Part shown: piece after piece, positions 3,022 through 43,199 of the stretch | Position numbering within the stretch: the stretch's first letter is position 1 | Layout: the number at the start of each line of letters is the position of its first letter | IMG/VR virus record: IMGVR_UViG_3300013307_000673 | Strand: one strand, 5' to 3' | Source of the DNA: a virus | Taxonomy: Duplodnaviria; Heunggongvirae; Uroviricota; Caudoviricetes | DNA length: 64,000 nt | Made by a program: the position numbers and the translations under genes | The notes under the pieces: generated by a model | Told to the model about the DNA's origin: nothing | Database searches by the model: none | Seen by the model: the letters and a program-made list of their open reading frames with translations, nothing else

Positions 3022-3252
3022 TTATTTTAGTGCTTTCTCAAGAGCGGATCGCATAAAGGCATTGATATTCAAACCTTCCGATTTAGCTTGAGCCTCAAGC
3101 TTTTCTTTCAGATCATTACTTATTCTGAAAGAAACCTCACTTAAACCCAATGCCTTATCAATTGCCTCAGCCTCACCTGCTGATGCCACAGCCACATAAC
3201 GCCCATCACAACCTAACTCTCTTGATTCCCACGGACATGTTTCTTTTTTCAT
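3022..3252 (-). CDS. Small ribbon-helix-helix (CopG/Arc-like) DNA-binding protein, 76 aa.
   Basis: C-terminal SFRISNDLKEKLEAQAKSEGLNINAFMRSALEKAL is a classic RHH beta-alpha-alpha pattern. AGAGGA RBS upstream. Confidence 0.55.
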   Translation of the reverse strand: MKKETCPWESRELGCDGRYVAVASAGEAEAIDKALGLSEVSFRISNDLKEKLEAQAKSEGLNINAFMRSALEKALK

Positions 3253-3791: not shown

Positions 3792-4082
3792 ATGAAAAAA
3801 CTGATTAGTCTTGCACTTACCACGTTACTATTCTCTGGCGCTGCGTTATCACAATGTAACTCAACCTCTCCAGCAAGGAGCAATGCCAGAGATGCTGGTG
3901 TTCAGGTCAATACAATTCAAACCTGTGAGAATAACGGCAATATTACAACCACTATTACTTACACGAATGGAACAGTAAAAATCATCAATCCTGATCATAG
4001 CGTTCAGGAAATCCGTGTGAATAATGAGATTAAACTCATTCAACCTGACGGAAAAGCTGTAGTTCTACAGCAAGGCCAGTAA
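3792..4082 (+). CDS. Small secreted protein, 96 aa, with signal peptide.
   Basis: MKKLISLALTTLLFSGAALSQ signal peptide and GGAG RBS. Terminator hairpin directly downstream. Confidence 0.55.
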   Translation: MKKLISLALTTLLFSGAALSQCNSTSPARSNARDAGVQVNTIQTCENNGNITTTITYTNGTVKIINPDHSVQEIRVNNEIKLIQPDGKAVVLQQGQ

Positions 4083-4095
4083 TCACATTAGGCAA

Positions 4096-4123
4096 TAAAA
4101 AAGGCCACTTAGTGGCCTTATTA
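4096..4123. terminator. Bidirectional intrinsic terminator (GGCCACT-TA-GTGGCC).
   Basis: Perfect stem flanked by A- and T-runs, between convergent genes 3792..4082 (+) and 4126..6093 (-). Confidence 0.75.
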
Positions 4124-4125: not shown

Positions 4126-6093
4126 TTATACGAACTTAAGCAGATAATCTAACACTTCGCTTTCGTTGTATTCCTCATTGTATTGGCTCATAAGAAGGCC
4201 AGCAGGATAGGCTTTAGAAAGTATCTTTCTTGCTTGCTCCACTGATGTAAGACTATACAGCTTATTTCTTATCTCAACTTCTGACTTTATAGGAGTCACT
4301 GCCCAATACTGAATAGGTGAAAGGTTAAAGTTCAGCGGAAGGCTCATATCTCCATTTTTTGTGCTAAAATGACCTTCTATTCCAATCGTGTTCTGCTGAA
4401 TGTTTGACTGCATGAATAAGTTGCTTTTATTCTTAGAGACGATATTAAAAGAAGATGTTGAATACTGTTTAAGCTGCTCTAATTTATAGTCATCACAAAT
4501 AGAATCATTAAATAAAACAGTTAAATCTACTCCTTGCTTACGCCCCTCTCTCAATAAAACTGTTATAATACCGCGAAGCTCATCACGATTATGTTTTTTT
4601 GAAAAAGCAATCTCTGCGTCGTCTAACACTAGACGTTTATTACTATTTTTTACTTTACTAATATAACGTCTTATTAAAGGTTTACATTTTTCATTTATAC
4701 TGGAAATATCATCATAGAAATAATGTTCAAGTATAAACTGTTTTAAAAGATGACAACTTGCAAGAACATAGCCAAACTCTGCTTCTTTGCTATCTTTGGC
4801 GAGAGCCAAATGCGTTATATGCTCTCTATAGTCTATATTTACATTAGTCGCACTTGAGGCAAATACATTATTTCTGAGGATCTCATCTGCTTTTATTATA
4901 GCTCTCTGGAACTCTTTCTCAAATACACTTAGTTCTCCGCGTCTTTCTGTATCAAGCGCATCCCTAAAATCTTTCATTGTCGGCATAGCTTGTTTGTGAG
5001 CATACCATGCCCAATATTCATTTTTACCTGAATCCGCAATGATATTTCTTATTTCAATCCACGACATCTCATTGCGACTCTCTCCAGCTTCTAATAATGC
5101 TATTTTTATTTCTGGAACACTTTCTATATTTACGTATTTTTCTTTATATAGACCTTCAGTGATTCTCCACAATGCTCCTGCGTTGAGTTCATTGCCTGTT
5201 ATATATGAAAGCACACTTGTTATCGCAGATAGTTCATTGCCTAATGGTTTATCATGCCCAAAACTGATATCGAACGGATTAATGCAATGCTGGCTCTCAT
5301 TATTAATATTGTATTTTTTAACAATTACTTCATATTTCTTTTTCTGTTTTAAACCATAACTTATTGTATCAATAAAACCATCGCTGCTTTTATCTTTACT
5401 TATAACTGAGATGTAAGGGGTTCTTTCATTATCGTCTGAGCTATTAGAGAAAAAAGACAGATTTAACGTATTTAATAATACTTTGGCATACTGTTTTTGA
5501 TATGGTTCGCTATAGCTTATTACGTTAATCCATACCTGCTGGTCTTGGGAGTTTGATTCAAAATAAAAAGATTGTCCATTGCTTTGAGTAAATCTATGCC
5601 CTTTATTTGAACCAATATCGTTTCTCGCTTCAGGCTTGTTAATTTTATCTTCGAAAGGCATGAACATTAAGACATCAGAGCCATCAATGCATTTAGATTG
5701 GTATTTTTGCATCACCACCAATATATTTAAAAACTCTTGTTTTATTTTTTTCTCGCAGTCGCTTTTTAAAATCAAATAATACTTTTTGTTTTTCCCAATA
5801 TTATCAATACTTATCTTCTTATTTACTTCATCAACCAAGTCAGACATAGCATAAAAATCATGAGCGGGTTTTAAAACTTCTTTTTCTTTATTATCAGACT
5901 CAATAAATATAATCTGGCTGCGGATTTTTTGTTTTTTTAGAAGATTTATTGTTTGCTCATCTTGAACATTAAAGTTGTCAACTTCAAGGATAATATAATA
6001 ATTATCATCATCTCCGCGCATGATATATGAAATATCATTTGTTGGAGTTAGAGTCTTGGCGGTAATAAATAAATCCTGTAGTATATTTTTCAT
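4126..6093 (-). CDS. Large hypothetical protein, 655 aa.
   Basis: Long uninterrupted ORF immediately downstream of the five-paralog array on the same strand. No recognisable motifs (no Walker A). Confidence 0.6.
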   Translation of the reverse strand: MKNILQDLFITAKTLTPTNDISYIMRGDDDNYYIILEVDNFNVQDEQTINLLKKQKIRSQIIFIESDNKEKEVLKPAHDFYAMSDLVDEVNKKISIDNIGKNKKYYLILKSDCEKKIKQEFLNILVVMQKYQSKCIDGSDVLMFMPFEDKINKPEARNDIGSNKGHRFTQSNGQSFYFESNSQDQQVWINVISYSEPYQKQYAKVLLNTLNLSFFSNSSDDNERTPYISVISKDKSSDGFIDTISYGLKQKKKYEVIVKKYNINNESQHCINPFDISFGHDKPLGNELSAITSVLSYITGNELNAGALWRITEGLYKEKYVNIESVPEIKIALLEAGESRNEMSWIEIRNIIADSGKNEYWAWYAHKQAMPTMKDFRDALDTERRGELSVFEKEFQRAIIKADEILRNNVFASSATNVNIDYREHITHLALAKDSKEAEFGYVLASCHLLKQFILEHYFYDDISSINEKCKPLIRRYISKVKNSNKRLVLDDAEIAFSKKHNRDELRGIITVLLREGRKQGVDLTVLFNDSICDDYKLEQLKQYSTSSFNIVSKNKSNLFMQSNIQQNTIGIEGHFSTKNGDMSLPLNFNLSPIQYWAVTPIKSEVEIRNKLYSLTSVEQARKILSKAYPAGLLMSQYNEEYNESEVLDYLLKFV

Positions 6094-6227: not shown

Positions 6228-7331
6228 TTAAAAAGCCACCAACCACCCGCGCAGACTGGATTCCTTGTCATCGCCGTATATCGTTCCGCTATGTTTTTCT
6301 TTTAGAATCCCCATAGCTTTATCGACATTATCTGTAATAACCCAATCCATTCTATCCTTTTCTGAAAGATAAATATTATTGGTCAGATACGTTTCCATTT
6401 TAGGACTATTGTTTTGAGGCCTGTCCTTAGAAATAATCGTATAAAAAGCATTAAAGGTCTTAAAAATTGTATAAAGTTTATCATAATCATGCTGTTTATA
6501 AGCCTCTAACATTTTTTTAAGCTCAGCATTCTTCGGCTCTACAACATCATCCATTTCCCCAACCGTTTTTTTAATAAACGTACTGTCTCTATTGTAGTTT
6601 GCAACTAAAAAATTCCTAATCTCAATATATTTTCTTGACTGCTCTGGTCTCAACATAAACAAATTAGAATCAACTCCATTTTCGCTTGAATATCTTATTA
6701 TATTGCTATACATTTTTTCAGGTAAGGATGGATCTTTTATATAATTATCTCTTGCTGAAAAAGAATACTGAGCATAATCAAGCGCCTCTTTTTTACTCAA
6801 ATTATTTTTTATCTTATCTTGATAAAGACGAATATTTTTCTGTAGCTTTTGTATATTTTCATTCCCTTCAGAAAAATATTCATCTTTTGAAAGCATTCCC
6901 ATAAGTGCTGCCAAATGTTTAGTATTATCTATTCCATTATATTTATATTTTGCTCGAACAAAGGCATCAAAAGTATTTGTTTCATTTAGATACGTAAATA
7001 ATGTATTGTTGCGGGAATCCACATAAATAAACTTGAATAACGCCATATCTTTCTCAAAATCACTCTTAGAATAAGGAACGGCATCAGCCTTATTTTTGAA
7101 TGCTGAATACGTTTCAACGCTTTCAAAGTAAGCAGCTCTACTATCAGCAAAGTTTGACATCTTTACACCATTAGATACAGATGTGCCTATATCTAAGGAT
7201 ACAGCAGTCAGACAAAGTAATGACAATGATATAAAGGACTTCTTGAAAAACCCTTTGGATTTGACTACTGAGTTGTTTTTATTTGTTATCTTTTGCTCAA
7301 AAACATTTTCTTGTCTTTTTAGTTCAATCAT
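6228..7331 (-). CDS. Paralog 5 of the N-anchored membrane-protein family, 367 aa.
   Basis: N-terminal basic segment plus one TM helix. Shares the AVPYS..F..D and YK.HDYDKL...F.TFNAF blocks with four upstream paralogs. Confidence 0.6.
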   Translation of the reverse strand: MIELKRQENVFEQKITNKNNSVVKSKGFFKKSFISLSLLCLTAVSLDIGTSVSNGVKMSNFADSRAAYFESVETYSAFKNKADAVPYSKSDFEKDMALFKFIYVDSRNNTLFTYLNETNTFDAFVRAKYKYNGIDNTKHLAALMGMLSKDEYFSEGNENIQKLQKNIRLYQDKIKNNLSKKEALDYAQYSFSARDNYIKDPSLPEKMYSNIIRYSSENGVDSNLFMLRPEQSRKYIEIRNFLVANYNRDSTFIKKTVGEMDDVVEPKNAELKKMLEAYKQHDYDKLYTIFKTFNAFYTIISKDRPQNNSPKMETYLTNNIYLSEKDRMDWVITDNVDKAMGILKEKHSGTIYGDDKESSLRGWLVAF

Positions 7332-7340
7332 TTTATTTCC

Positions 7341-8399
7341 TTAATAATAAAGAGCAAACATGTCGTCATAATAAACAGCATTCTCAGGGGTATATTCTCC
7401 TTTTGCCCTGGCAATAAAGCGAGCACTGTCAAATATCAATGAGCCATCATATATGCCATCAAATAATACAGAGGATATTAAATTGGTTGTTGGCGCATTT
7501 TTATTGGCATAACTCATTGGCTGCTCAACCATCACATAACTAAAAGCACGAGCCATCTGTAGCAGCTTTCTTAGTTTTTCTTTATCTCCTGATTTATAAT
7601 ACTTTTCTATTTCTGAGTTTGCTTTATTGGCAGACGATTCCACATCATGGAAATATTTATTAAGACCTTCGCTTGTTGAAGTTAGTTTTTTTCTATTATA
7701 AGCGATATTAGGATCTATAAGTAATATATTTTCACTGAAACCTTTCTCTTTTAAATAACTATTCATATTATTGTATATTTCTTGATTATCGCTATTCATA
7801 GGACCTAAACTACCGTATATGTTAGATAATCTTAAAGAGCCGGATATAAATTTTCTTGCCGTATCTGGATCATCTTCAGGCTTTATTGTTCTTTCCATCG
7901 TATTAGAAACACTTACAGGGATGTCTTTAAGCTCGCTATCAGGCAATCCTTTTGTCGCCTGCAGTAGCCGCTCATAATTTTCATTTTGGTCTTTATATTT
8001 AAAACCATTAATTATCATTGAATTAATATTATAGCCACGACCTCCTCCTCTACTATTAACTATTTTCCTATACATTACATTATCTTTATGTCCGTATAGA
8101 TAGTCTAATGTTTTTAGATCATAGTTAAACTGCGCATCAGAATAAGGCACAGAATCAATTTGCTTTTTAAAGCTTTCATATTCAGTTAAAACATTATGGT
8201 TATGCACTTTATATTCCGCAATATTACTTATTTTAATCGAATATGTATTTATCAAAGCAACATCCCATGAGGTGATTGCTGCAACAGTTAAACCTACACC
8301 TAAAGCAATACGCTTCAGCCATGAAGCCTTTGCGATTTTATTTTTTGATACCTTGGAATAGGTATATTTTTGTCCAAACAAGCTTTTTGTTTTTAACAT
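7341..8399 (-). CDS. Paralog 4 of the N-anchored membrane-protein family, 352 aa.
   Basis: Conserved blocks: SVPYSDAQF, EKGFSENILLIDP, YYKSGDKEKLRKLLQMARAF, and a C-terminal YTPEN..YYDD.F.LY. Confidence 0.65.
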   Translation of the reverse strand: MLKTKSLFGQKYTYSKVSKNKIAKASWLKRIALGVGLTVAAITSWDVALINTYSIKISNIAEYKVHNHNVLTEYESFKKQIDSVPYSDAQFNYDLKTLDYLYGHKDNVMYRKIVNSRGGGRGYNINSMIINGFKYKDQNENYERLLQATKGLPDSELKDIPVSVSNTMERTIKPEDDPDTARKFISGSLRLSNIYGSLGPMNSDNQEIYNNMNSYLKEKGFSENILLIDPNIAYNRKKLTSTSEGLNKYFHDVESSANKANSEIEKYYKSGDKEKLRKLLQMARAFSYVMVEQPMSYANKNAPTTNLISSVLFDGIYDGSLIFDSARFIARAKGEYTPENAVYYDDMFALYY

Positions 8400-8409
8400 A
8401 TTTTAGTCC

Positions 8410-9459
8410 CTAGAAATATAATGAAAAAAATGAATCATCATAATACAAAGAGTTATCAGGTGTATAATCACCATTTTTCTGAGCAATCCATTTTATAGTT
8501 TCCGCCACACCATAACCATTTTCAGCATCACCTATAAGCTTAAATGAAAGGGGAGGCTCAACTAATCCCACATTATACGTTTTCTGCGCTATCTCTCCCG
8601 CTATGCGATATTTGAATGCATACGCCATCTGGAGCAGCTCTTTCAGCTTCGCCTTATCACCAGAACGATAAACACTCTCAAGCTCAGCATTCGCTTTCTG
8701 AGTAGACTCTCGCACTTTTGTATAAAACTTTTCAATACCTTCAGATCTATCACCTCGTGAAAGAGCAAGATCAGGCGATATGAAAAGAATATTTTCACCA
8801 AATCCTTTTTCTTTGAAATAATGCTCCATGTTTTCATAAAGCCCTTTATTCAAAGATATTCCCTCACCAAAAGTGGCATAGCTTGCGCTCATTCTATATG
8901 AAGCTAATGAGTTCATTGCCCACTTTACTTTATCCTTTTTAACACCCTCATCCAAAGAAAATACTTTGTATATTTCAGGATTTAGATCTTTGAATTCCTT
9001 TTCAGGCATATCTTTTGTTAAGGTTAGTAGCTTATTATACGTTGCGACCTGATCGATATATTTACCACTTCCTAACGTCATCATGCCTAAAAAAGAACCA
9101 TAACCTCCACTGACGCCGCTCATTATTTTGTTATACATAACGTTCTCCTGATGATTATAGATAACATCAAGAACCTTTAAATCCTGATTAAACTGCGCAT
9201 CTGTATAAGGAACTGCATCTATTTGTGATTTAAATGTGCTATAGGATGATAACGATTTATAATGGTTTACTTTGTAGTTTGCTAATGTGTTTACCTTAGC
9301 AACATCACCACTTAATATAGCCACATCACATGCAGCAATACCTGCCACCGTAAACATTACACCTACTATAACTTTTTTAACAAAAGAGGTCTTACTGACC
9401 TTAGCCGATTTCTCTTTATAGGTTATATCGTTATTAAATACACTTTTAAATTTAAACAT
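8410..9459 (-). CDS. Paralog 3 of the N-anchored membrane-protein family, 349 aa.
   Basis: Conserved blocks: AVPYTDAQF, EKGFGENILFISP, YRSGDKAKLKELLQMAYAF, and a C-terminal YTPDN..YYDD. Confidence 0.65.
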   Translation of the reverse strand: MFKFKSVFNNDITYKEKSAKVSKTSFVKKVIVGVMFTVAGIAACDVAILSGDVAKVNTLANYKVNHYKSLSSYSTFKSQIDAVPYTDAQFNQDLKVLDVIYNHQENVMYNKIMSGVSGGYGSFLGMMTLGSGKYIDQVATYNKLLTLTKDMPEKEFKDLNPEIYKVFSLDEGVKKDKVKWAMNSLASYRMSASYATFGEGISLNKGLYENMEHYFKEKGFGENILFISPDLALSRGDRSEGIEKFYTKVRESTQKANAELESVYRSGDKAKLKELLQMAYAFKYRIAGEIAQKTYNVGLVEPPLSFKLIGDAENGYGVAETIKWIAQKNGDYTPDNSLYYDDSFFSLYF

Positions 9460-9474
9460 TTGCAGTATCCTTAT

Positions 9475-10548
9475 TTAGTGCCATAGAATAAAATCATCTT
9501 TATCGTAGAGCGATTCTTTTTCAGGTATTAGTGTTCCTGTCATCTTCTGATATGCCTTCGCGCCTTGTTGTATAGTTTCATAATAATCATAGTTATTATC
9601 AAAATACGTCATGAGCATAGCAGATATAGGGAAGCCTATATGCGCATTTTCTTTTAGAGATTGATCTACAGCAACAGAAGTAAAAGCATTACCGAGCCGG
9701 AACACCTCCCTTAACTTATCCAAATCTCCATGCTTATAGTATGCCTTCAATGTTTCAATATTTAATGCAACCTCTCTATCTATTTTATCTTGTTCACTCT
9801 GATATTCTTTTGAACTTATTTCCCCAAGCTTCATTTTGATATAAGCCGATTTCCATAAATACATATTTTTGCTTATACCATGTTCGCTTAATAATCTTTC
9901 AAAGTTACCATAAATAGGAGCATACGTATTATCAGCAGCAATATTTAAATCACTATTCATTACAACGAATATAGATTTAGCACGCTTCTTTGCCTGCAAA
10001 TCGTCAGAGTAAGAAAATCCATCGCTTTTTATTTTATATTTATCTGTAATACGCTGTATTTTTTCCGCGTTAAGTGTTGAACTTAGGTTATCACCATTCA
10101 CATCATCAACAGATTCTCGATTCAAAAAAGACATCTCTTTTAAATAACCAACAGGATCAGTGTAAGTGTATTTAAGCAGTAAAAGTGTATCAAGACCATC
10201 GCCATAGTTTATTGTATTTCTAAAAGATTTATTACCCTCAATATAGGTTAACTTAAATATGTTTAAATCTCGGTTAAAATCCGCATCTGAATAAGGAACT
10301 GCTTCCATTTTAGATTTAAACGTCGAATAATTATTTATTTGAGCGTTATTATAGGTTTTATAGTCAACCATATCAGCAACATGCTTAATATTGGTCAGGT
10401 TAACCGCCACATCCCATGAGGCTATAGAAGCAATAGAAAGCGCTACGCCTAAAGCAACTCTTTTGAATAGAGATGCCTTATTGATTTTACTTTTGCTTGT
10501 TTCCCTATAGCTAACATTTTTGTCAAAGATATTTTTAGTTTTTAACAT
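9475..10548 (-). CDS. Paralog 2 of the N-anchored membrane-protein family. Start moved to an internal ATG, giving 357 aa.
   Basis: An AAGGA RBS lies 9 nt before the ATG at 10548. The tabled start at 10578 would overlap paralog 1. Conserved blocks: AVPYSDADF and YYKHGDLDKLREVFRLGNAF. Confidence 0.6.
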   Translation of the reverse strand: MLKTKNIFDKNVSYRETSKSKINKASLFKRVALGVALSIASIASWDVAVNLTNIKHVADMVDYKTYNNAQINNYSTFKSKMEAVPYSDADFNRDLNIFKLTYIEGNKSFRNTINYGDGLDTLLLLKYTYTDPVGYLKEMSFLNRESVDDVNGDNLSSTLNAEKIQRITDKYKIKSDGFSYSDDLQAKKRAKSIFVVMNSDLNIAADNTYAPIYGNFERLLSEHGISKNMYLWKSAYIKMKLGEISSKEYQSEQDKIDREVALNIETLKAYYKHGDLDKLREVFRLGNAFTSVAVDQSLKENAHIGFPISAMLMTYFDNNYDYYETIQQGAKAYQKMTGTLIPEKESLYDKDDFILWH

Positions 10549-10558
10549 TATGAATTCC

Positions 10559-11650
10559 TTATGGCCTATACCAAACATCGAATATGCCTTTTTTATATAT
10601 TTTTTCTTTTTCTGGTGTTAACGAGCCAGTATATTTAGAATACAACTCAGCAGGCTTCAAGAAATTAGTTGTGCCTAACATTTCATCCTGATATAAATAA
10701 AATGAAAAAGAATATCCTAAACGGTAATCATTTTTGATGCCATCAATATAATCAGAAACGACTACTGTCGAAAAGCCGTTACCTATTTTGAATAGCTCCC
10801 TAATCTTTTTAAAATCGCCTTTTTCATAATAAGCACGTAATGCTTCATTATTCTTATTCATCTGATTGTCATAATTTTCATATATTGCTTTTGCTTCAGG
10901 ACTTCCCGATTTACCGATTACTGCATCTAGCTTTTTGACATCTTCTTTTTTGGGAAAATAAGCTTGAGCATTAAACCCTTTCTCCGTCAACAACTGACTA
11001 AGATTATCATAAATTTTACTTTCACTATGCATATAAGTATAAGAGGAGCCTAGCGACAGGTTTGCTCTTATTGACTTGATCATTCCAGGATCACTAAAAT
11101 CTTTCTTATAAGGTTTATGCTTGTCATTAATAGCGCTAATCTTGCCGTAAAAGTCTTTTTCTCTTTCACCTGTCATTTCTTTAACATCACGCCCTTTTGT
11201 GAAGTTATAGACATCTTTATAAAACTCTCCAGGATTATCAAGATTAAAATTCATCTGCAGCATCGTATTTAGCTCCACACCACTACCTACCGGGCCATCT
11301 CTCCACATGTATTTTTTGAAAGCCGCATTATCTGTGCCTCTATAGCCATATATATATTCAAAGGTATTCAGATCTTTTTTGAACTGCGCATCCGTGTAAG
11401 GCACCGCCATCACTCTCGCCTTAAAAGAACTGTAGTTATCAAGTGAGGCATTATCCGCTATCTTGTAATCAACCATTTTATTGATATGAGCAATATTTGA
11501 GGTGGTTACAGCAACATCGTAGGTAGCAAAACCTCCAAATAAACAGAAAGCACCTATAACGATAGGCTTCCACATCTTTCTTTTTATAACAGATTTATCT
11601 GCAGCTACAGTCCTTTGACCGAACAGTGTTTTATTGCCAAACTTTAACAT
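10559..11650 (-). CDS. Paralog 1 of the N-anchored membrane-protein family, 363 aa.
   Basis: GAGGA RBS. TM helix IVIGAFCLFGGFATY. Conserved blocks: AVPYTDAQF and YYEKGDFKKIRELFKIGNGF. Preceded by a sigma70-like promoter and by terminator 11722-11752. Confidence 0.65.
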   Translation of the reverse strand: MLKFGNKTLFGQRTVAADKSVIKRKMWKPIVIGAFCLFGGFATYDVAVTTSNIAHINKMVDYKIADNASLDNYSSFKARVMAVPYTDAQFKKDLNTFEYIYGYRGTDNAAFKKYMWRDGPVGSGVELNTMLQMNFNLDNPGEFYKDVYNFTKGRDVKEMTGEREKDFYGKISAINDKHKPYKKDFSDPGMIKSIRANLSLGSSYTYMHSESKIYDNLSQLLTEKGFNAQAYFPKKEDVKKLDAVIGKSGSPEAKAIYENYDNQMNKNNEALRAYYEKGDFKKIRELFKIGNGFSTVVVSDYIDGIKNDYRLGYSFSFYLYQDEMLGTTNFLKPAELYSKYTGSLTPEKEKIYKKGIFDVWYRP

Positions 11651-11721
11651 AAAAAATCCTCATTTTATCATAGTGTAATAATACTATTTTAGCAGAGGTT
11701 ATGCCAAATTTATTATGTAAA

Positions 11722-11752
11722 CAAAAAAGGCCGCACTGCGGCCTTTATATAA
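11722..11752 (-). terminator. Intrinsic terminator (GGCCGCACTGCGGCC) separating the upstream small gene from the paralog array.
   Basis: Perfect 6-bp GC stem with a T-run on the minus strand. Confidence 0.7.
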
Positions 11753-12634: not shown

Positions 12635-13264
12635 TTAGTAAAGCTCTGCTTTCTGAATGCAGTCCTCGTAGAGTAAATGAAACTCTGTATTCTCATGGCA
12701 ATCATATCCGCTATGTTTTTTATAGTAATCTAAGAGGTCTCCATTACTCAACTCAAGACCTTCATTTAGAAGATAGGCCTCTACCAATGCTTGTTTGCCC
12801 ATTTCTTTTTTAAAAGCAACTATTAGCTCAGGTGATGCTACACAAGACAAGAAACATTCATTTAAAAAATCATTTTTTCTTCCCAATTCAGCCTTTAGCT
12901 CTTCAATCCTACCTTTATTTTTGGCTTTTATTTTAACTCTTTCCAGCAAATCATCAACAAAAAACACCCCCAAAAAGGATACCGGCACCAATAAGCAAGA
13001 TGAGGCTAAAACTGAAAAATCCAGCAATAAATGTGATAAAAATGCCAAAATTAAACCAAATGACAATCCAATAATTATAATTATTGATGCTAATACAGAA
13101 TCAAAAAACCTGTCATACAAAAAATCGGAAATGCTTTGTTCTTGCTTGTTATTTTCTAAAAAATCTATGTTTTCTAACATTTCTTTTTCTTTCTTGCTAT
13201 TGTGATCAGCCCTTTCTTTTTCTAAAATTTTCTCAAAATCAAAAATAGCTGTAGAACTATTCAT
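12635..13264 (-). CDS. Hypothetical membrane protein, 209 aa, with two TM helices.
   Basis: Hydrophobic stretches IIIIIGLSFGLILAFLSHLLL and LVPVSFLGVFFV. The antisense ORF 12795..13205 is rejected. Confidence 0.5.
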   Translation of the reverse strand: MNSSTAIFDFEKILEKERADHNSKKEKEMLENIDFLENNKQEQSISDFLYDRFFDSVLASIIIIIGLSFGLILAFLSHLLLDFSVLASSCLLVPVSFLGVFFVDDLLERVKIKAKNKGRIEELKAELGRKNDFLNECFLSCVASPELIVAFKKEMGKQALVEAYLLNEGLELSNGDLLDYYKKHSGYDCHENTEFHLLYEDCIQKAELY

Positions 13265-21499: not shown

Positions 21500-22123
21500 T
21501 TATTTTCCTGCCTGATATTCCTGCTGGAGCTTTCTTACACGCTCAAGCTCACTTTCTTCATGAACTACACCGCCTGTGTTAAGATCCAGATAGAACTGAA
21601 TCAAGTCACCGTAATCTTTCACATCATAGATCTGGAACAGGAGATGCTTACGGCGCGGCGAGAAGGCTGTTTTAAGCAGTGAAGCCTCATCATATCGCCC
21701 ACCGAAAATCTTAAACTTGCCATCCATGAAATCCACAACGGCAGTTAAACGCTGCAGGCCATCCACACAGAACATATCGTAGCCATGCATTCCCGTCGCC
21801 TCAGCACTGAAATCATGAAACTTGGCGCAGTTAAACTTGATTTCAAGTGGCGCGGTTCCGCGAAGCAAATTTTCAACATATCCAATCTGTTTTTCACGCG
21901 ACCACACATGCCCGCGCTGGAAATCAGGATTTAGGTTAAACACGCCACCATCCAGCTCCGCTTGCTCAGCCTGACGTGCAAGCTCACGTTTTACATTATG
22001 GAGATCGACAGACACACTGTAGTTGCAGGTGCGCATAGGCCGGATAATACGATAAAGCTCGCGCTCTTCTTCACTGAGTCCAGCCCAATGTGAAGGACTA
22101 ACACCAAATTGTTCTTTTTCCAT
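21500..22123 (-). CDS. DUF262 (ParB/sulfiredoxin-fold, GmrSD N-terminal-like) domain protein, about 207 aa.
   Basis: Motifs NPDFQRGHVW and VDGLQRLTAV (the DGQQR signature of DUF262). Start moved to MMEKEQ, which has a GGTGA RBS. The tabled start at 22186 overlaps a TTGCTT-17-TATAAT promoter. Confidence 0.55.
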   Translation of the reverse strand: MEKEQFGVSPSHWAGLSEEERELYRIIRPMRTCNYSVSVDLHNVKRELARQAEQAELDGGVFNLNPDFQRGHVWSREKQIGYVENLLRGTAPLEIKFNCAKFHDFSAEATGMHGYDMFCVDGLQRLTAVVDFMDGKFKIFGGRYDEASLLKTAFSPRRKHLLFQIYDVKDYGDLIQFYLDLNTGGVVHEESELERVRKLQQEYQAGK

Positions 22124-22157
22124 CATAATCACCATAGAGTTCATTAATATGGTTGTC

Positions 22158-22186
22158 ATTATACAGACATCAGAAATCCAAAGCAA
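22158..22186 (-). promoter_or_regulatory. Sigma70-like promoter (TTGCTT-N17-TATAAT) for the DUF262 gene.
   Basis: Hexamers with exact 17-nt spacing immediately downstream of terminator 22188-22212. This implies the real CDS start is downstream of the tabled one. Confidence 0.5.
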
Positions 22187-23338: not shown

Positions 23339-23692
23339 TCACTTGAATACTGATTTCAAAGCATCTAAAAGATATTGGGTATTCAGGCGTTTTACGCTAT
23401 AATATTCATAGCCGTAGTAATTATCTACATGATCAGTCCCATCATCCCACAGACCTTTACTCTCCAAACGTTTATACTGAAGGAATGTGATATCTGGGCA
23501 AATAACCTCAAGCACATCGATCCATTCTTCAGGATCATGCAAAGGCTCTGATTCAGCTTGAATTAGGGATGTACTGCCAACCATACCTCCAATAATCCAT
23601 TTCTTTTCAATAGGGAACACCTTACGCCCCAGCGCTTCCTCAACCAGTTTTTCCAACTCTTTAGCACTTTTAATGCCATGAATATCAATCAT
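23339..23692 (-). CDS. Hypothetical protein, 117 aa. Shorter paralog of 23773..24321.
   Basis: Shares KKW..GG......E.EP......DVLE...PD.T.....R block with the 182-aa neighbour. Confidence 0.5.
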   Translation of the reverse strand: MIDIHGIKSAKELEKLVEEALGRKVFPIEKKWIIGGMVGSTSLIQAESEPLHDPEEWIDVLEVICPDITFLQYKRLESKGLWDDGTDHVDNYYGYEYYSVKRLNTQYLLDALKSVFK

Positions 23693-23772: not shown

Positions 23773-24321
23773 TTAACTGAATGTCTTTCTCAAAGATTCA
23801 AGTAAACTTTGCGTTTCATACTCATGAATCATGACATTGTAATTATCATAATAATAGCCCATTTCTGTATCGGTATACTCTGAATACTCCAGGCCTGATA
23901 ACACACGCTCTATCTGTATCGCCGTCATGTCAGGACGCAAAAACTCAAGCACATCTAACAGACCTTCCGCGTATTTAGGTTCACGCTCTGCTTCTAATAC
24001 AGTTTCTCCACCATAGCCATCAGCACCTGTTCCACCAGTTTTCCATTTTTTCTTCAGAGGGAACAAGCCGGGACGATCCAGCTCTTTTTCGATATAGCCT
24101 TCAAAATGCGCTTCAGAAATAAATGAATGAACATCAATCAAGCCGTCAGCATTTTTTCTCACTGGCAACTCGCGCTCATTTGGATGATTGCGCCCCATAC
24201 TGCTACGTTCAACACCTGCAGCCGACAGTTTTTCCATCTCCTCTACTAACAGCTCACCTTCAGATTTCGCATAAACAAACTCTTCAGTTATTTTAGGACG
24301 CTTTTTCGTTGTCGTATTCAT
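23773..24321 (-). CDS. Hypothetical protein, 182 aa. Paralog of 23339..23692 with an N-terminal extension.
   Basis: Shares the C-terminal 120-aa domain with the neighbouring gene. Terminator 23712-23750 lies between them. Confidence 0.5.
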   Translation of the reverse strand: MNTTTKKRPKITEEFVYAKSEGELLVEEMEKLSAAGVERSSMGRNHPNERELPVRKNADGLIDVHSFISEAHFEGYIEKELDRPGLFPLKKKWKTGGTGADGYGGETVLEAEREPKYAEGLLDVLEFLRPDMTAIQIERVLSGLEYSEYTDTEMGYYYDNYNVMIHEYETQSLLESLRKTFS

Positions 24322-24433: not shown

Positions 24434-24994
24434 TTAATAAAATGAAAAAACAATCGTTGAGCTTGTTCCCGCAGAGTTACATGCTGTCGCCGCATTTGCT
24501 ACACTCCAGTCAACATTAGATAAATCACTTTTAGCATAACTACCGCCTATGTTAACCATAGACATACTTGGAGCAACTGCTGTTACAAGCTTAACGCAAG
24601 CATCTTGAGGGACGTTGGCATAACTTATATTGAACACAACCTTACCATAGGAAGCATAATTTGTAGCAGACAACTTTACTTTACCTTTAAAACCATTAAC
24701 CACATCTGATACTGTTCCACCACTTTGAACTAACATATTATCAGGAAATATTTGCGCATTTATTCCTACTGTATTATTTACTGTTGTTATATTCGTTGTG
24801 GATGAATATAAAGCCAGTAATCCTGCTCTAATGGTCGCAATATTTTTAGATTCAGCGTCAACTATTTGCGAAGTTCTTACTTTAGGATAAACAATAAAAG
24901 CCGCCACTATTAGCGCCGCTATTATTCCTAAAACCAATAATAACTCTAACAAAGAAAATCCTTTTAACTTTCTATTCCTAATAAAAATCTTCAT
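24434..24994 (-). CDS. Type IV pilin / pseudopilin-like protein, 186 aa.
   Basis: Class III prepilin leader MKIFIRNRKLKG|FSLLELLLVLGIIAALIVAAF, with Gly at -1, Phe at +1 and Glu at +5. C-terminal Cys pair (DACVKL...ATACNS), typical of the pilin disulfide loop. Confidence 0.7.
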   Translation of the reverse strand: MKIFIRNRKLKGFSLLELLLVLGIIAALIVAAFIVYPKVRTSQIVDAESKNIATIRAGLLALYSSTTNITTVNNTVGINAQIFPDNMLVQSGGTVSDVVNGFKGKVKLSATNYASYGKVVFNISYANVPQDACVKLVTAVAPSMSMVNIGGSYAKSDLSNVDWSVANAATACNSAGTSSTIVFSFY

Positions 24995-33321: not shown

Positions 33322-34233
33322 ATGAATATTTTGAAAGATGAGAAAACTAACTTGGGCGCAGCATATCTTGGTGTAATTCTTACGCTTGTTTTCCTTGCTG
33401 TAGCTGTTTATGCAGGCATGAACTGTAAAGTTTTAGTTCAGGAAGCAGGATTCTATGATAGTAAAATCGTAGAAGATTTTTCTGTACCGTATGCTTGCGC
33501 AGCTTTCATTGCGGCATTCTTCTCAGTTATTTCATTCTTAAATAGCTTTATTATCATCTCTCCCAACCAAAAAGTGGTCGCAAGTTTCTTAGGAAAATAC
33601 CGGGGTACACTTACAGGAGAAGGATTCACATTGGTTAACCCTTTCTTCTCCTTTGAAAAAATCAGCACTAAGATTGGCACCTTTGAGACGCAAGAAACCA
33701 AAATCAATGACAAAGAAGGGATTCCTTTGAATGTTTCGATGGTTGTTAACTATCGTGTTGATCAGGCCGCGCCTTTTCATTATAACGCAGAAAAGCCGGA
33801 CGATATTATTCGCAACGCCAGTGAGAGCGAACTGAGAACTATCGTTACACAACACGCTTTTGATAGTGACAAAAATGAAGATGAAACACTCAGTAAAAAT
33901 CTGGATATATTCTCAAGAAACTTGGTTGAACGTATCAACGTGCGCCTGAAAGAGATTGGCGTGATCGTAACCAGCGCTAATATTACTAAAATTTCTTATG
34001 CACCAGAAATCGCTCAATCAATGCTGCAGCGTCAGCAAGCCAAAAAATTGGCTGAAAGTCGTCGTGAAATCGTAGATGCTGCAGTATTAACAGTGAAGGA
34101 CGCTGTTCAAGACATTCAAACTAAGATTGGTGTCACTTTTGATGACACTGAAAAGAAACGCCTTGTAGAAAAACTGATGGTGGTTATCGTTTCCGACAGG
34201 CCTACCACACCTGTTATCTCCCTCGATAACTAA
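33322..34233 (+). CDS. SPFH (stomatin/prohibitin/flotillin/HflKC, band 7) domain membrane protein, 303 aa.
   Basis: N-terminal TM helices, then ISPNQKVVASFLGKYRGTL..GFTLVNPFF..EKISTKIGTFETQ...IPLNVSMVVNYRV, typical of an SPFH core. Coiled-coil C-terminus. Confidence 0.6.
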   Translation: MNILKDEKTNLGAAYLGVILTLVFLAVAVYAGMNCKVLVQEAGFYDSKIVEDFSVPYACAAFIAAFFSVISFLNSFIIISPNQKVVASFLGKYRGTLTGEGFTLVNPFFSFEKISTKIGTFETQETKINDKEGIPLNVSMVVNYRVDQAAPFHYNAEKPDDIIRNASESELRTIVTQHAFDSDKNEDETLSKNLDIFSRNLVERINVRLKEIGVIVTSANITKISYAPEIAQSMLQRQQAKKLAESRREIVDAAVLTVKDAVQDIQTKIGVTFDDTEKKRLVEKLMVVIVSDRPTTPVISLDN

Positions 34234-34380: not shown

Positions 34381-35574
34381 TTACTGGTTTAAGATATGAA
34401 GCTCAATGCTGGTATCAAGACTTTCACCTATTACATCAGCAAGCACATTATAGAAAGATTCGCCATTATCCCATTCTTCTGGAGAGATAATCAGCTTATC
34501 TTTGCCTTCAATAATCTCACAAAGGTAGGCGTATTCTTCATCTTCAATGTCTGAAGTTTCTTCCCATTCAGTTTTAATGTTTGATAGTTTAACTTGCTGC
34601 CATTCTTTAGATTCTTTGCAAAACTCAACGTTTACACCAACATCATCATCTTCCCAATTCACTTTGATACTCTCAACAGCATCAGCAAGGTGGCGTAGAA
34701 AGCTTGCAGTATCCTTAGCTTGACCACCTTGCCCTGAAGTCATAATAGGCCGAATCATAACGTTCTCTACAAGCATTGTCTCAAGTAACCGTTCTGTTTC
34801 GGCTAGGGCGCGGAACACTTCTTCTTCAGCTTTTTCAAAGCCATTATTTTTAGCAAAAGTAATGACTTCTTTATGAACTTTTGATCCGCTTACATTTGAT
34901 ACAGCTTGACCAATAAAGCTAAACTTAATCTTGTTCAAGTTAGTTTTCGCTATACTTTCAAAAGCTATCTTATTAGCAATATCAGTTTGTTGCTCGAAAG
35001 TGATTTTACCAGACTCAACATCTGCTTCCAGTCTTGCTTTATTGATGTCAGCCGCTTCTTTAAATCCCATCATGTTATTATAACAGCTTAACACTTCCTT
35101 GATTTTGGCATCAATTGTTTCTTTTGAGTGAATCATTACCTGATAAACGGATTCATGGATAGCAAAGGCCGCAACAAAACACTTCTCCCCTTGAAAATCC
35201 TTAAGGAACAATCTCCCACTGCGAACCATATCCTGAATCTTCTGCCATGTTAAATCTTTTACATTTACATCCATATGATCATGACAATCGTTATATTCTT
35301 CGCCCTCTATAGAGATATTCTCTGAATATTCTTGTTTAATATAATTTTGAATATACTTGGCAAACAAAGAATCTTCGTCAAAATCATAATTATTGAAATC
35401 AGCATATTCTGCAGGAATAGCTCCACCGCCAATAATCTTAAAGTTATCCCAGGGATAGCATTCACCACCTTTACCAATTACCTGACCTTCAGATACAACA
35501 TAAAATAAGCGCACCTTATTTCCTTCACGGATTGGCGCACGGCTGACAGCACACGTTGTATTAAACGATCCCAT
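34381..35574 (-). CDS. Hypothetical protein, about 397 aa, starting at MGSFNTT.
   Basis: A GAGGGT RBS precedes the ATG at 35574. The tabled start at 35586 lies inside that RBS. Confidence 0.5.
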   Translation of the reverse strand: MGSFNTTCAVSRAPIREGNKVRLFYVVSEGQVIGKGGECYPWDNFKIIGGGAIPAEYADFNNYDFDEDSLFAKYIQNYIKQEYSENISIEGEEYNDCHDHMDVNVKDLTWQKIQDMVRSGRLFLKDFQGEKCFVAAFAIHESVYQVMIHSKETIDAKIKEVLSCYNNMMGFKEAADINKARLEADVESGKITFEQQTDIANKIAFESIAKTNLNKIKFSFIGQAVSNVSGSKVHKEVITFAKNNGFEKAEEEVFRALAETERLLETMLVENVMIRPIMTSGQGGQAKDTASFLRHLADAVESIKVNWEDDDVGVNVEFCKESKEWQQVKLSNIKTEWEETSDIEDEEYAYLCEIIEGKDKLIISPEEWDNGESFYNVLADVIGESLDTSIELHILNQ

Positions 35575-35716
35575 TTTTACCCTCATTAGTTATAAAATAT
35601 CACCGTCATTTTACGCTAAAGGCATTTTATAAGCAAGAAAAATCAATTTTACTCGTTTTTTATGTATAAAAAAAGCGCCATGAAAGGCGCTTATTATTTC
35701 TAAAACATTTATTGAT

Positions 35717-38326: not shown

Positions 38327-39391
38327 ATGAAACACATAAGAGATATTTCTGTTAGGGCTGTTGCTTCATCGGTATTATTTATTTTTTCATTTTATGCATT
38401 TATTCCTTTTGTATTTTATTTAACCGGAGATATATCAACATCTCTGATATTATTTTCCGCTATTCCTTTTCTGCTATTACCTGCATCACTTTTTATTCGG
38501 CATTACATTACGGTTAATCTGATTAACCCATTATCCTTATTACGTAAAGATATTCATAACCTCAGCAACAAAGACTTCTGTAAGAGCGCATTTTGCTCTC
38601 CTGATCTTGATGTAGTCAGAGAAATGTTAAGCCAATGGGCAACTCAGCAGCAGGAAGCCTCACAGCGTCTTAATGACAGTCTTATCTCACTGGATAAAGG
38701 TAATCTCGCGCTACTCTCCAGAAATGAAACACAGAGCCGCGCTGTTGAGAAAACCGCATATAATGTCAATGAGCTTTATCAGGTCGCCTCACACAACGAA
38801 CAGGAGTCCAATCAGGCCTTTTCATTGGCTTCTATGACACTTGCTGGTGTTCAGGAGGCCATAGAGAATGTTTCACTTATGACAAACTCTACAAGCACTA
38901 TAAAGGACCAGTCTTTGGAGATTAAAAAGATATCAGACTTTATCAGTGAGATGGCCTTTAAAACAAACTTACTTTCATTGAACGCCTCAATTGAAGCCGC
39001 AAGAGCGGGCGATCATGGCAGAGGCTTTTCTGTTGTAGCCAATGAAGTGAGATTGCTGGCTAAAAGTTGTGCTGATTCCGCTCAGGAAATCAAGGCGCTT
39101 GTGAATGATACCTCCTCTCAAATAGAAGATACATTCAAACTGAATAATAAAAACGCGGCTTATATCCATGAAATGCTTACGATGATAGAGAGAACTAATG
39201 TGGCGCTTTCTACGATTAGCACATCATCCAAAGAACAACGCATGAAAATAGAATGTATGAAGAACTCTATTGATAATATTATTATGGCGGTTTACGAAAA
39301 TACAACTTACTCCGAGGAAACTGCTAAGATATTAAACAATATTCGACATGATCTTGATGATATTGAAAAGGAGCATAAAAAGGCCGCATAA
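38327..39391 (+). CDS. Methyl-accepting chemotaxis protein (MCP) signalling-domain protein, 354 aa, with an N-terminal two-helix membrane hairpin and no periplasmic sensor.
   Basis: Near-perfect MCP highly-conserved-domain signature FKTNLLSLNASIEAARAGDHGRGFSVVANEVRLLA. Two adjacent TM helices at residues 10-58. Confidence 0.75.
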   Translation: MKHIRDISVRAVASSVLFIFSFYAFIPFVFYLTGDISTSLILFSAIPFLLLPASLFIRHYITVNLINPLSLLRKDIHNLSNKDFCKSAFCSPDLDVVREMLSQWATQQQEASQRLNDSLISLDKGNLALLSRNETQSRAVEKTAYNVNELYQVASHNEQESNQAFSLASMTLAGVQEAIENVSLMTNSTSTIKDQSLEIKKISDFISEMAFKTNLLSLNASIEAARAGDHGRGFSVVANEVRLLAKSCADSAQEIKALVNDTSSQIEDTFKLNNKNAAYIHEMLTMIERTNVALSTISTSSKEQRMKIECMKNSIDNIIMAVYENTTYSEETAKILNNIRHDLDDIEKEHKKAA

Positions 39392-42191: not shown

Positions 42192-42281
42192 TGGCGGTGA
42201 AGGAGGGATTCGAACCCTCGGCGCGGTTGTCCACGCTCCGTCTTAGCAGGACGGTGTATTAAGCCTCTCTACCACTTCACC
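42192..42281 (-). tRNA. tRNA-Ser (anticodon GCT), type II with long variable arm, CCA encoded.
   Basis: Manual fold: acceptor GGTGAAG/CTTCACC, anticodon stem CCGTC/GACGG with loop CTGCTAA, T-arm GAGGGTTCGAATCCCTC. Confidence 0.7.
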
Positions 42282-42353
42282 ATTAATCGATCAGTAAGAG
42301 AATACGTTGGCATGACATATCTCTTACTCAATTTACGCAGAGCGTATATTGTT

Positions 42354-42439
42354 TGGTGCCTCAGATCAGACTCGAACTGGTATAGCCATAAGCTGAGGGA
42401 TTTTAAATCCCTTGTGTCTACCGATTTCACCACTGAGGC
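42354..42439 (-). tRNA. tRNA-Leu (anticodon TAA), type II.
   Basis: Acceptor GCCTCAG/CTGAGGC, D-arm GGTGAAATCGGTAGACAC, anticodon stem AGGGA/TCCCT with loop TTTAAAA. One C-A mismatch in the T-stem. Confidence 0.65.
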
Positions 42440-42652
42440 ATTAAAAGGAAGTTGCAGCTTCCTTTTTAGGTTAACTTGTTCCGCCGACTATACAAGTTTA
42501 AATAGTGAATGATAAAGGCTTATCAATTATTTCAAACTCAGCTTAGAAAGCGATATTAGGCCTCTTTCTTAAAACAGCTCAGTCCCGATTGATTACGGTT
42601 TCAAACGCAGTAAATTACTTGTTGTCATACAGCGCTGTAGGCTCGCATAACT

Positions 42653-42728
42653 GGCGCATCCTATAGGATTCGAACCTATGACCTACGGCTTAGAAGGCCG
42701 TTGCTCTATCCTGCTGAGCTAAGGAAGC
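42653..42728 (-). tRNA. tRNA-Arg (anticodon TCT), copy 1.
   Basis: Canonical cloverleaf: GCTTCCTTAGCTCAGCAGGATAGAGCAACGGCCTTCTAAGCCGTAGGTCATAGGTTCGAATCCTATAGGATGCGCCA. Confidence 0.75.
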
Positions 42729-42767
42729 AATATTATCTTACGCTCTATACCGCGTTTCGATGTAGTA

Positions 42768-42796
42768 ATAATAGCAAAGACGACCTTTCAGTACAA
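42768..42796 (-). promoter_or_regulatory. Conserved tRNA promoter (TTGTAC-N17-TATTAT) upstream of tRNA-Arg copy 1.
   Basis: Hexamers with 17-nt spacing about 40 nt upstream of the tRNA 5' end. The same -35 octamer GTTGTACT recurs at five other tRNA loci. Confidence 0.55.
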
Positions 42797-42878
42797 CACT
42801 TTTCTCACTATTTTTAACTGACTGCAGACTTTTTGATCAATATGCAACAAAAAAGGAGGCTTGGCCTCCTTTCTCATT

Positions 42879-43199
42879 TTAATACCATGAATCATGTTGC
42901 TCTTTCGATCTATCGTAGACTTTGCCTATGAAAATTTTGAAGATTTTTTCTTCTTCTTCATCCATTTCTCTTGATTGTCTGCCTATTACCACTCGACTTT
43001 TTCCTTTCTCTGAAAGCAAAAAGCAAATCTCTGGCTCTATGCGGACATTTATCTGTATAGAAAAAGGACAGAACTCCATTATACACAAATACTTTGACTC
43101 ATATCCTTCAAAATCAAAAATTACAGGATCATAGTTATTTCTCAGCAAATCAGCACTTTCTTCAATGAACATTAACTCTTTTTTGATTAACTCTTTCAT
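42879..43199 (-). CDS. Hypothetical protein, 106 aa.
   Basis: Complete ORF with GGAGAAAGATATG RBS. Terminator 42850-42875 downstream. Confidence 0.45.
   Translation of the reverse strand: MKELIKKELMFIEESADLLRNNYDPVIFDFEGYESKYLCIMEFCPFSIQINVRIEPEICFLLSEKGKSRVVIGRQSREMDEEEEKIFKIFIGKVYDRSKEQHDSWY

Follow-up and report, generated by a model that had tools for sequence, protein, structure and literature searches.

We analysed a 64-kb stretch of DNA (64,000 nucleotides; hereafter the window) from the IMG/VR virus record IMGVR_UViG_3300013307_000673, which carries a tandem array of five paralogous genes encoding predicted membrane-anchored periplasmic proteins. A sequence-only reading of this DNA had placed five consecutive minus-strand genes at 6228-11650, and the list of open reading frames (ORFs) bore out their positions. 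We refer to the paralogs as A to E in the order of transcription. The features of the array and its transcription unit are as follows.

11726..11746, minus strand: predicted terminator of the upstream unit, with a 9-bp stem (6 GC pairs) followed by a T-run; it marks the 5' boundary of the array's unit.
11678..11707, minus strand: sigma-70-like putative promoter of the array, TTGGCA, 18 nt, TATTAT; 10/12 consensus matches.
10559..11650, minus strand: paralog A, 363-aa ORF with a GAGG ribosome-binding site.
9475..10548, minus strand: paralog B, 357 aa (the mechanically called ORF reaches 10578), with an AAGGA ribosome-binding site.
8410..9459, minus strand: paralog C, 349-aa ORF, 40% identical to D.
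7341..8399, minus strand: paralog D, 352-aa ORF, the most polymorphic copy, with many clusters at 90% identity.
7540..8140, minus strand: recombinant tract in D (about aa 87-286, ~600 nt), an allele swap relative to the related locus L002.
6228..7331, minus strand: paralog E, 367-aa ORF, which diverges most from the other copies and is variable at aa 240-280.
4126..6093, minus strand: 655-aa protein resembling IcmB/DotO/TraU, with a dead P-loop; its gene is an insert, variable among relatives, that separates E from the operon terminator.
4101..4119, minus strand: predicted terminator closing the array's unit, with an 8-bp stem and T-run, after the 655-aa gene.

The start of B most likely lies at the ATG at 10548, as this codon follows the AAGGA ribosome-binding site, falls in alignment where the other paralogs begin with MLKTK, and agrees with the 357-aa gene calls in two related loci (L001 and L002). 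With this start the apparent overlap of A and B disappears, and the genes are separated by spacers of 9-15 nt, each containing a ribosome-binding site. All five genes form one operon. The array had been credited with its own promoter and with a terminator at 11722-11752. A promoter-like site does exist at 11707-11678, but the hairpin at 11746-11726 belongs to the preceding unit of small genes, which it ends, and the array's own closing terminator is the hairpin at 4119-4101. The upstream hairpin is kept in related loci through compensatory changes in its stem (GGCCGC/GCGGCC vs GAACCA/TGGTTC vs GAGCCA/TGGCTC). The promoter-like sequence is conserved in loci L001, L002, L003, and L015, and a paralogous version (TTTGCT, 18 nt, TATGAT) precedes an additional A-like copy, A0, found in some relatives. 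Promoter-like sites in this region were not enriched over shuffled sequences, so promoter function is inferred. Host RNA polymerase would transcribe the array from this site. A recurring phage-specific promoter motif was considered and rejected, as the array's upstream sequence occurs only once in the window. We found no terminator between E and the 655-aa gene, and in L001, which lacks that gene, the same hairpin as at 4101..4119 directly follows the stop codon of E. Together these observations imply that the 655-aa gene is an insert inside the array's unit.

The five proteins are colinear in alignment over their full length. Pairwise BLASTP gave E-values between 9e-8 (D-E) and 2e-82 (C-D), with E matching A, B, and C at 1e-11 to 1e-16. 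Measured identities were 17-40%, extending below the 25-40% first estimated, with E as the outlier (17-21% to the others). When only the ectodomains were compared, pairs scored 29-204 bits, and 100 shuffles reached at most 33.9 bits. D-E was the only pair inside the shuffle noise, and E is tied to the family through A, B, and C at 38-55 bits. These comparisons identify the five genes as true homologues and show that the shared blocks are no coincidence of composition. Identity this low over full-length homology also supports the view that the paralogs are old. Paralog A is nearest to the ancestral type, as distant relatives resemble A most. Four sequence blocks had been described as common to all five proteins. 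Two of them are, namely VPY[ST][DK]..F..D[LM] and, from the third block, the core Y..[GH]D..K[LI]...[LF].....[AG]F, but EKGF.ENIL.I.P and YTP[DE]N..YYDD.F as written are specific to C and D, degenerate in A and B, and largely missing from E. The array occupies the most AT-rich stretch of the window (GC content 0.32-0.34). No further family members were found elsewhere in the window, and the remaining sets of tandem paralogs there are small, with 2-3 genes each encoding 72-182 aa.

Every copy matches the anatomy originally proposed, a basic cytoplasmic tail followed by one transmembrane (TM) helix and an extracytoplasmic domain of ~300 aa. In A-E and all of ~40 relatives, hydropathy analysis (Kyte-Doolittle) revealed a single hydrophobic peak at about aa 24-52 (1.5-2.4) and no second hydrophobic segment. 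The N-terminal tail carries a net charge of +6 to +9 (8-11 Lys/Arg, 0-3 acidic residues), and the 15 residues after the peak are near neutral. In paralog A, the peak spans aa 30-48 and the tail charges are +8/-1. By the positive-inside rule, the proteins would be oriented N-in and C-out, with a cytoplasmic tail and a periplasmic domain. The large domain lacks cysteine in every one of the ~40 members. The hydrophobic core is short, with ~15 G/A/S/T-rich residues ahead of a near-invariant [WY]D. Tail, TM segment, and stalk are the best-conserved part among the paralogs, and F8 and K28 in the tail are invariant. We favour a stable signal anchor with a stalk, given the long conserved basic tail and a continuous helix at aa 24-71 in the AlphaFold model. 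Because the core is short and rich in these residues, cleavage by signal peptidase or signal-anchor-release behaviour is nonetheless possible. The G/A/S/T-rich TM segments have a hydropathy of 1.6-2.3, but the ~30 preceding residues with 8-9 positive charges should hinder release. A cysteine ends the hydrophobic segment only in C-type copies (IAAC), where A, B, D, and E carry Y, W, W, and L. We therefore rejected a receptor-blocking lipoprotein of the T5 Llp or Cor type, as there is no conserved lipobox cysteine.

An AlphaFold2 (AF2) model of A built from 39 sequences was confident and all-alpha, with a predicted local distance difference test score (pLDDT) of 85.2 and a predicted template-modelling score (pTM) of 0.83. 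It comprises a 48-residue anchor-stalk helix at aa 24-71 followed by ~16 helices. The model of C, from an alignment of 19 sequences, was mediocre (pLDDT 67) and likewise all-alpha. The N-terminal third and two short core blocks are highly conserved, the central part poorly. Family-wide, the conserved positions hold aromatic or hydrophobic residues as well as D93, N216, and two lysines, and are located at helix-loop-helix junctions. The invariant residues are Y, F, D, N, and K, without a catalytic-looking set of H, C, S, or E. In the model these positions look like a structural core rather than an active site. As a separate observation, an aromatic residue (F, W, or Y) occupies one of the final three positions in 41 of 43 distinct family C-terminal tails, compared with 30 of 80 background ORFs. 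Such endings (e.g., LYY, LYF, LWH, WYRP, or VAF) are held even where the rest of the C-terminal third is unalignable, and could reflect core packing or an exposed ligand.

Searches against known families returned nothing that would name the function of A-E. No Pfam model matched at E ≤ 0.1 above noise, the best matches scoring 14-16 bits and all falling under their cut-offs. The match of E to TraB_PrgY_gumN (E 0.032, 14.5 bits vs a cut-off of 26.8) was treated as noise. No PHROG matched at E ≤ 0.01 except phrog_33463 for A (E 0.007), and PADLOC and NCBIfam searches of the five genes and their neighbours gave nothing above noise. T4 Imm, T4 Sp, and other annotated phage exclusion families claimed none of A-E as members in Pfam or PHROGs. 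The family profile matched no PDB sequence, and no structural similarity to PDB entries was found. Foldseek against BFVD gave nothing at E ≤ 1e-3, with a best E-value of 0.06 and a TM-score of 0.15; the weak, non-significant top matches include tape-measure proteins. A housekeeping enzyme was likewise absent from the structure and profile matches, and no description of the family was found in the literature. The predicted fold is new as far as tested.

The family is very small. An indexed search of 5.8 billion proteins yielded 15, then 13, clusters, and an exhaustive HMMER scan of 1.84 billion representatives yielded 21 proteins at E ≤ 1e-3. No relative bears a name beyond "hypothetical protein", and all reside on huge-phage-like contigs (0.16-0.87 Mb) or short metagenomic fragments. 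We found no match in 50,697 phage records (megablast of the array; tblastn of C, P0031, and P0029), none to A in 72,556 plasmids (tblastn), and no family member in GTDB searched at one genome per species. Within these collections the family is restricted to one phage clade.

Proteins of the window are recorded on a 458,248-bp contig of the Joint Genome Institute (JGI). The contigs of close relatives measure 552,876, 259,989, 227,478, and 866,249 bp, and more distant relatives occur on contigs of 341,648 and 162,793 bp, as well as on short contigs of low GC content (26-28%). Several signs give the element the look of a huge phage, namely two of the contigs being in IMG/VR, 12 tRNA genes within 20 kb, 12 PHROG families among 50 ORFs, and a neighbouring protein with Rak2-like homologues. 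The last of these is the protein at 34381-35586, with 33-36% identical homologues in Rak2-like jumbo phages, among them CBB, BF, GAP32, and fHe-Yen9-04. The same signs support the original attribution of the array to a phage. This assignment rests on indirect signs, as no hallmark structural gene was found within the window. We propose that this huge, uncultivated phage infects Enterobacterales. Binning had placed the 227-kb contig with the metagenome-assembled genome "Serratia sp. Se-RSBMAAmG", a label that occurs in a cycad-insect gut metagenome paper (PMC10665472). Of the largest contig (Ga0308161_1000008, 866,249 bp; loci L003 and L005), IMG/VR kept as viral only the last 259,022 bp, as UViG_3300031087_000527. 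The contig has the array only once and is thus not a simple two-fold concatemer; it may be a phage genome of exceptional size, an integrated element, or an assembly chimera.

The sequence-only reading had suggested checking whether relatives occur as arrays of varying copy number, and they do:

L001 (the Serratia-bin contig): 5 copies, in the order of the window.
L002: 5 copies, in the order of the window.
L003 = L005: 6 copies; the extra A-like A0 lies upstream, is 43% identical to A, and has its own duplicated promoter and terminator.
L014: 4 copies of 363, 355, 351, and 367 aa.
L015: 5 copies (A0, A, B, a C/D fusion, and E).
L004 / L007: 2 copies, both A-like.
L008 (low GC): at least 4 copies, the contig end cutting the array.
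L012 (low GC): 2 copies of 325 and 316 aa.

The tandem arrangement is thus old and general in the family, with plastic copy number. The order A-B-C-D-E is constant in the window, L001, L002, and L003. In L014 and L015, the 351-aa gene is an in-frame fusion of C and D. Over nucleotides 1-240 it shares 84-98% identity with C. Beyond a crossover in the conserved VPY[ST]DAQF block, the gene is D-like and up to 100% identical to D of the window. From its sequence, this fusion is the footprint of an unequal crossover between adjacent copies. Such in-frame chimeras show that a head can function as a continuation of another paralog's anchor-stalk in one reading frame, making anchor and head exchangeable modules.

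A second form of exchange is visible in D. Across 8.7 kb, L002 matches the window at ~99% identity, with 0-3 mismatches per 100 nt outside the D tract but 11-25 within it. In this tract dN was 0.15 and dS 0.53 (dN/dS, or omega, 0.28). The high dS implies that an older allele was imported by recombination, rather than an adaptive burst. We rejected the tract as a target of a diversity-generating retroelement, as its divergence is ordinary for an imported allele and the Pfam scan of 50 ORFs contained no reverse transcriptase family, although a template repeat was not searched for explicitly.

Comparison with orthologues in L001 and L003 gave the following dN/dS values:

A: 0.43 vs L001, 0.20 vs L003.
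B: 0.23 vs L001, 0.18 vs L003.
C: 0.15 vs L001, 0.20 vs L003.
D: 0.30 vs L001, 0.24 vs L003.
E: 0.28 vs L001, 0.31 vs L003.

For reference, well-conserved neighbours had values of 0.00-0.16 and spurious antisense ORFs ~0.75-1.5. The range of 0.15-0.43 implies that all five are real, functional genes under purifying, somewhat relaxed selection. Variability is focused in aa 100-260 of D and aa 240-280 of E. Among D orthologues, identity falls to 50% at aa 160-180, and the most variable tract has a dN/dS of 0.24-0.41; segment 236-285 of E ranges from 0.06 to 0.70. The paralogs had been called diversifying. This description suits the repertoire and its alleles, but not positive selection, given the omega values and the high dS of the D tract.

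The 655-aa protein on the same strand after the array, earlier left uncharacterised, could be placed. In tblastn, proteins annotated as IcmB, DotO, or TraU in 122 plasmid records aligned with 62-80% of the query at 20-24% identity, the best E-value being 1e-15. The match spans about aa 438-964 of the 1015 residues of IcmB, the ATPase half. Metagenomic intermediates of ~1000 aa keep the Walker A sequence AQPGAGKS and the motif hhhDE, give weak matches to the VirB4_CagE and TraC models, and match 3785, mostly conjugative plasmids. At the aligned positions, the phage proteins have YSEPYQKQYAK for Walker A and DD for DE, and no [AG]xxxxGK[ST] motif was found in the 655-aa protein. The IcmB-like family matched no PDB sequence. 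The 655-aa protein and its 638-aa paralog (36% identity; at 14508-16424 in L002) are almost certainly ATPase-dead, judging from these motifs. The 655-aa protein is best described as a degenerate IcmB/DotO relative, not a functional member of that VirB4-family group of type IVB secretion system (T4BSS) ATPases. It may act as a decoy against conjugation or T4BSS machinery. No description of phage IcmB-like genes was found in the searched literature, and by that measure a phage that keeps a crippled conjugation ATPase has not been described before.

The slot holding these genes varies. Neither gene is present in L001, the 655-aa gene is in the window and L014, the 638-aa gene is in L015, and both are in L002 and L003. 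The array is present without an IcmB-like gene in the 10-kb flanks of L004, L007, L008, and L012. Its occurrence without one at five loci, L001 included, implies that any functional coupling is optional. Just beyond the slot there is always a 96-aa protein convergent with the array (3792-4082, plus strand), with a signal-peptide-like N-terminus. Its amino acid sequence is 100% identical in L001 despite a dS of 0.36 (dN 0), indicating very strong selection.

Upstream of the array's unit, a 209-aa membrane protein (12635-13264, minus strand) is 47-48% identical to its L001 and L003 orthologues, compared with 84-99% for the flanking genes. With a dN of 0.37 and a dS of 1.15, it is a second hypervariable envelope gene of the region. 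A type IVb pilin-like protein (Pfam PilS 1.6e-21, N_methyl, weak TcpA) with small adjoining tandem paralogs lies on the minus strand at 24434-24994, 23773-24321, and 23339-23692. PilS/Bundlin-like and GmrSD_N-like genes are also found upstream of a family member in the distant low-GC locus L011, which implies that this synteny is old. A PcfJ-like protein and a small ribbon-helix-helix (RHH) protein (RHH_1; weakly NikA-like) are encoded on the minus strand at 1743-2921 and 3022-3252. Together the PcfJ, RHH, IcmB-like, and PilS-like genes lend the region the flavour of a conjugative plasmid.

Our preferred interpretation, to which we assign a probability of roughly 0.3, is that the array supplies a bank of periplasmic blockers, tethered to the inner membrane, that serve superinfection exclusion or envelope protection. 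Each bitopic protein would place a ~30-aa basic tail in the cytoplasm and, through a signal-anchor helix continuing into a periplasmic stalk, hold a cysteine-free all-alpha domain of ~300 aa in the periplasm. The copies would act singly rather than in an obligate complex, and their tethered domains would bind rather than catalyse, blocking or neutralising agents that cross the envelope of the infected cell. Candidate targets, which are guesses, include the ejection machinery or tail lysozymes of superinfecting phages and other periplasm-acting invaders. Tail, TM segment, stalk, and helical core would form a common scaffold, with the variable central third setting the target of each copy. The repertoire would be remodelled by duplication, unequal crossover, and allele exchange among related phages.

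Several observations favour this interpretation. Independent binders are preferred over a fixed complex on account of the constant anchor, stalk, and core, the variable middle, the lack of catalytic-type invariants, and the tolerance of 2-6 copies and C/D chimeras. Purifying selection on A-E is more relaxed than on the best-conserved neighbours. The array also lies in the most AT-rich stretch of the window and is flanked by hypervariable or indel genes, namely the 209-aa membrane protein and the IcmB-like slot with 0, 1, or 2 genes. The P-loop-dead IcmB/DotO homologue and the PilS-type pilin nearby fit a theme of interfering with envelope machines. For a phage whose infection cycle is presumably long, the most economical role of such proteins would be to block or neutralise whatever must pass the envelope, such as rival phages or periplasm-acting toxins.

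Other results weigh against such a bank of blockers. We found no homology link to any exclusion protein. No gene or segment tested reached an omega of 1, and a strong arms race would usually leave a signal of positive selection. The constant A-E order and short spacers would equally suit a stoichiometric complex, and the conservation of the cytoplasmic tail between paralogs hints at a shared cytoplasmic partner that blockers would not need. Finally, signal peptidase may cleave after the short hydrophobic core, in which case the proteins would be soluble rather than tethered. A bolder version of the blocker interpretation strikes us as improbable when taken whole. It holds that a fold-novel family exclusive to an uncultivated megaphage clade (contigs of 0.34-0.87 Mb), with constant anchor and stalk, exchangeable heads, and co-transcribed ATPase-dead IcmB/DotO decoys, forms an envelope shield against rival phages and conjugative DNA during a long infection. 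The aromatic C-terminus could additionally be an outer-membrane-protein-mimicking ligand for periplasmic PDZ proteases or sensors.

The alternative that survives best, although we consider it doubtful, is that the five proteins combine into a single hetero-oligomeric assembly in the envelope. This might be a periplasmic scaffold, ring, or channel, which would be built stoichiometrically and held in the membrane by the bundled TM helices and conserved N-terminal tails. The gene order is constant across the four loci that share it, each spacer has its ribosome-binding site, and ancient paralogs have all been retained under purifying selection. Moreover, the best-conserved region among paralogs (tail, TM segment, and stalk) is what an oligomerisation module would be expected to preserve. 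A fixed assembly is difficult to reconcile with arrays of 2, 4, 5, and 6 copies, and with a C/D fusion that drops one subunit in two different genomic backgrounds. The independent promoter and terminator of A0 and the wholesale swap of the central region of D between near-identical phages also speak against it.

A second alternative, unlikely in our judgement, is that the array and the IcmB/DotO-like protein form a module derived from type IVB secretion or targeting it. The N-terminal tails would dock on the VirB4-family protein, and the module would serve either as a membrane machine of the phage's own or as a poison for the conjugation apparatus of the host or a plasmid. In the structure of the R388 type IV secretion system (T4SS), the tails of VirB8 and VirB3 reportedly dock onto VirB4. 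The 655- and 638-aa genes lie within the same transcription unit, between E and its terminator, and encode IcmB/DotO/TraU homologues, with the conjugation-flavoured PcfJ, RHH/NikA-like, and PilS genes nearby. The short cytoplasmic tail, single TM segment, and periplasmic domain resemble VirB8/DotI- and DotF/IcmG-type subunits, and a VirB4-family gene is co-transcribed in some genomes. However, the IcmB-like partner is dispensable, being absent from L001 and from the examined flanks of four further loci, and its P-loop is destroyed. The all-alpha fold is unlike the NTF2-like VirB8 or the beta-barrel of VirB10, and no profile similarity links the family to VirB8/DotI, DotF/IcmG, or VirB10/DotG. 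Homology of the paralogs to DotF/IcmG or other T4BSS subunits was rejected, as the family hidden Markov model matched no protein around IcmB in the MPF_I plasmid pLMG930.2 above noise. An hhalign comparison with the bitopic protein in the DotF position gave a probability of 2.6%, over the TM segment only.

It is quite improbable that the proteins control lysis timing in the manner of the T4 holin T and antiholin RI. These are N-in single-pass proteins with periplasmic domains that sense superinfection and control hole formation. The gross topology of A-E, deduced from the positive-inside rule, is that of T, and their G/A/S/T-rich TM segments are moderately hydrophobic (1.6-2.3). Yet A-E matched no Pfam or PHROG holin, and the structural search found nothing in the PDB, which holds the T and RI periplasmic domains. 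The ectodomain is about twice the size of T's, and five copies would be unexpected for a holin. Nor did the 50 window ORFs that reach 120 aa or more include any lysozyme, endolysin, or spanin family. Least credible is a role as ejection or pilot proteins carried in the virion, with the hydrophobic helix entering the host membrane as DNA is delivered. In its favour, ejection proteins include alpha-helical single-TM proteins and the weak BFVD matches include tape-measure proteins. Against it, those matches are non-significant, the locus lies in an accessory region of tRNAs and small ORFans and not in a structural module, and an N-terminal hydrophobic segment with a strongly basic n-region is typical of Sec/YidC targeting from the cytoplasm. 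The weight not taken by the blockers and these four alternatives goes to something else.

Twelve tRNA genes are scattered among small ORFs at 42192-60897, all on the minus strand. ARAGORN assigned the tRNA at 53827-53903 a four-base anticodon 'agaa' (tRNA-???); it adjoins tRNA-Phe(gaa) genes and could be frameshift-suppressor-like or degenerate. Unusual cargo for a phage includes SPFH/Band_7, methyl-accepting chemotaxis protein (MCP) signalling domain, M49 (DPP-III-like) peptidase, ankyrin-repeat, GmrSD_N-like, and polysaccharide deacetylase proteins (in this order: 33322-34233, plus strand; 38327-39391, plus; 48866-50770, minus; 52241-53233, plus; 21500-22186, minus; and 947-1687, minus).

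Known systems offer partial parallels. T4 Imm and Sp, P22 SieA, and HK97 gp15 are phage superinfection-exclusion proteins of the inner membrane, small (roughly 80-200 aa) and single-copy, that block incoming phage DNA or tail lysozyme. Like them, A-E are phage-encoded, non-structural, anchored in the inner membrane, and exposed to the periplasm by prediction, and are accessory and variable between related phages. Unlike them, A-E have ~300-aa all-alpha ectodomains in arrays of 2-6, show no similarity to them in sequence or fold, and have an exclusion activity that is hypothetical. Orphan immunity arrays associated with type VI secretion (T6SS), contact-dependent inhibition (CDI), or bacteriocin toxins are bacterial, usually encode proteins of ~100-300 aa with cleaved signal peptides or lipoboxes, and have a cognate toxin adjacent. 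The present array shares with these the serial diverged envelope-facing paralogs in one orientation, recombination-driven copy number, and a presumed neutralisation of a different periplasmic agent by each copy. It differs in its phage context, in lacking an adjacent toxin gene and a conserved lipobox (cysteine occurs in C only), and in having no PADLOC or NCBIfam match. In its dynamics, the array is analogous to viral multigene families or 'genomic accordions', such as poxvirus K3L amplification and the multigene families (MGFs) of African swine fever virus (ASFV), where duplication, unequal crossover, and loss change copy number; here these are represented by the C/D fusion and A0. In contrast to accordions, the paralogs are ancient (17-40% identity) and individually conserved, without an omega above 1.

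Huge phages have hundreds of ORFans, and orphan paralog families are common among them. The finding, as read from sequence and models, is accordingly a well-delimited new protein family and not a new kind of system. This family is unusually tractable, in that it combines a confident predicted structure without a known relative, a clear topology, a copy-number series with chimeras marking module boundaries, and allele swaps pointing to a specificity region. With the P-loop-dead IcmB/DotO homologues, the idea that a phage encodes a decoy against conjugation can be tested directly. Should the five proteins assemble into a complex, they would represent a new periplasmic assembly built by a virus. 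If they are instead exclusion or protection factors, they would constitute a new class of protein in phage-phage and phage-plasmid competition, and part of the accessory load of megaphages would be explained.

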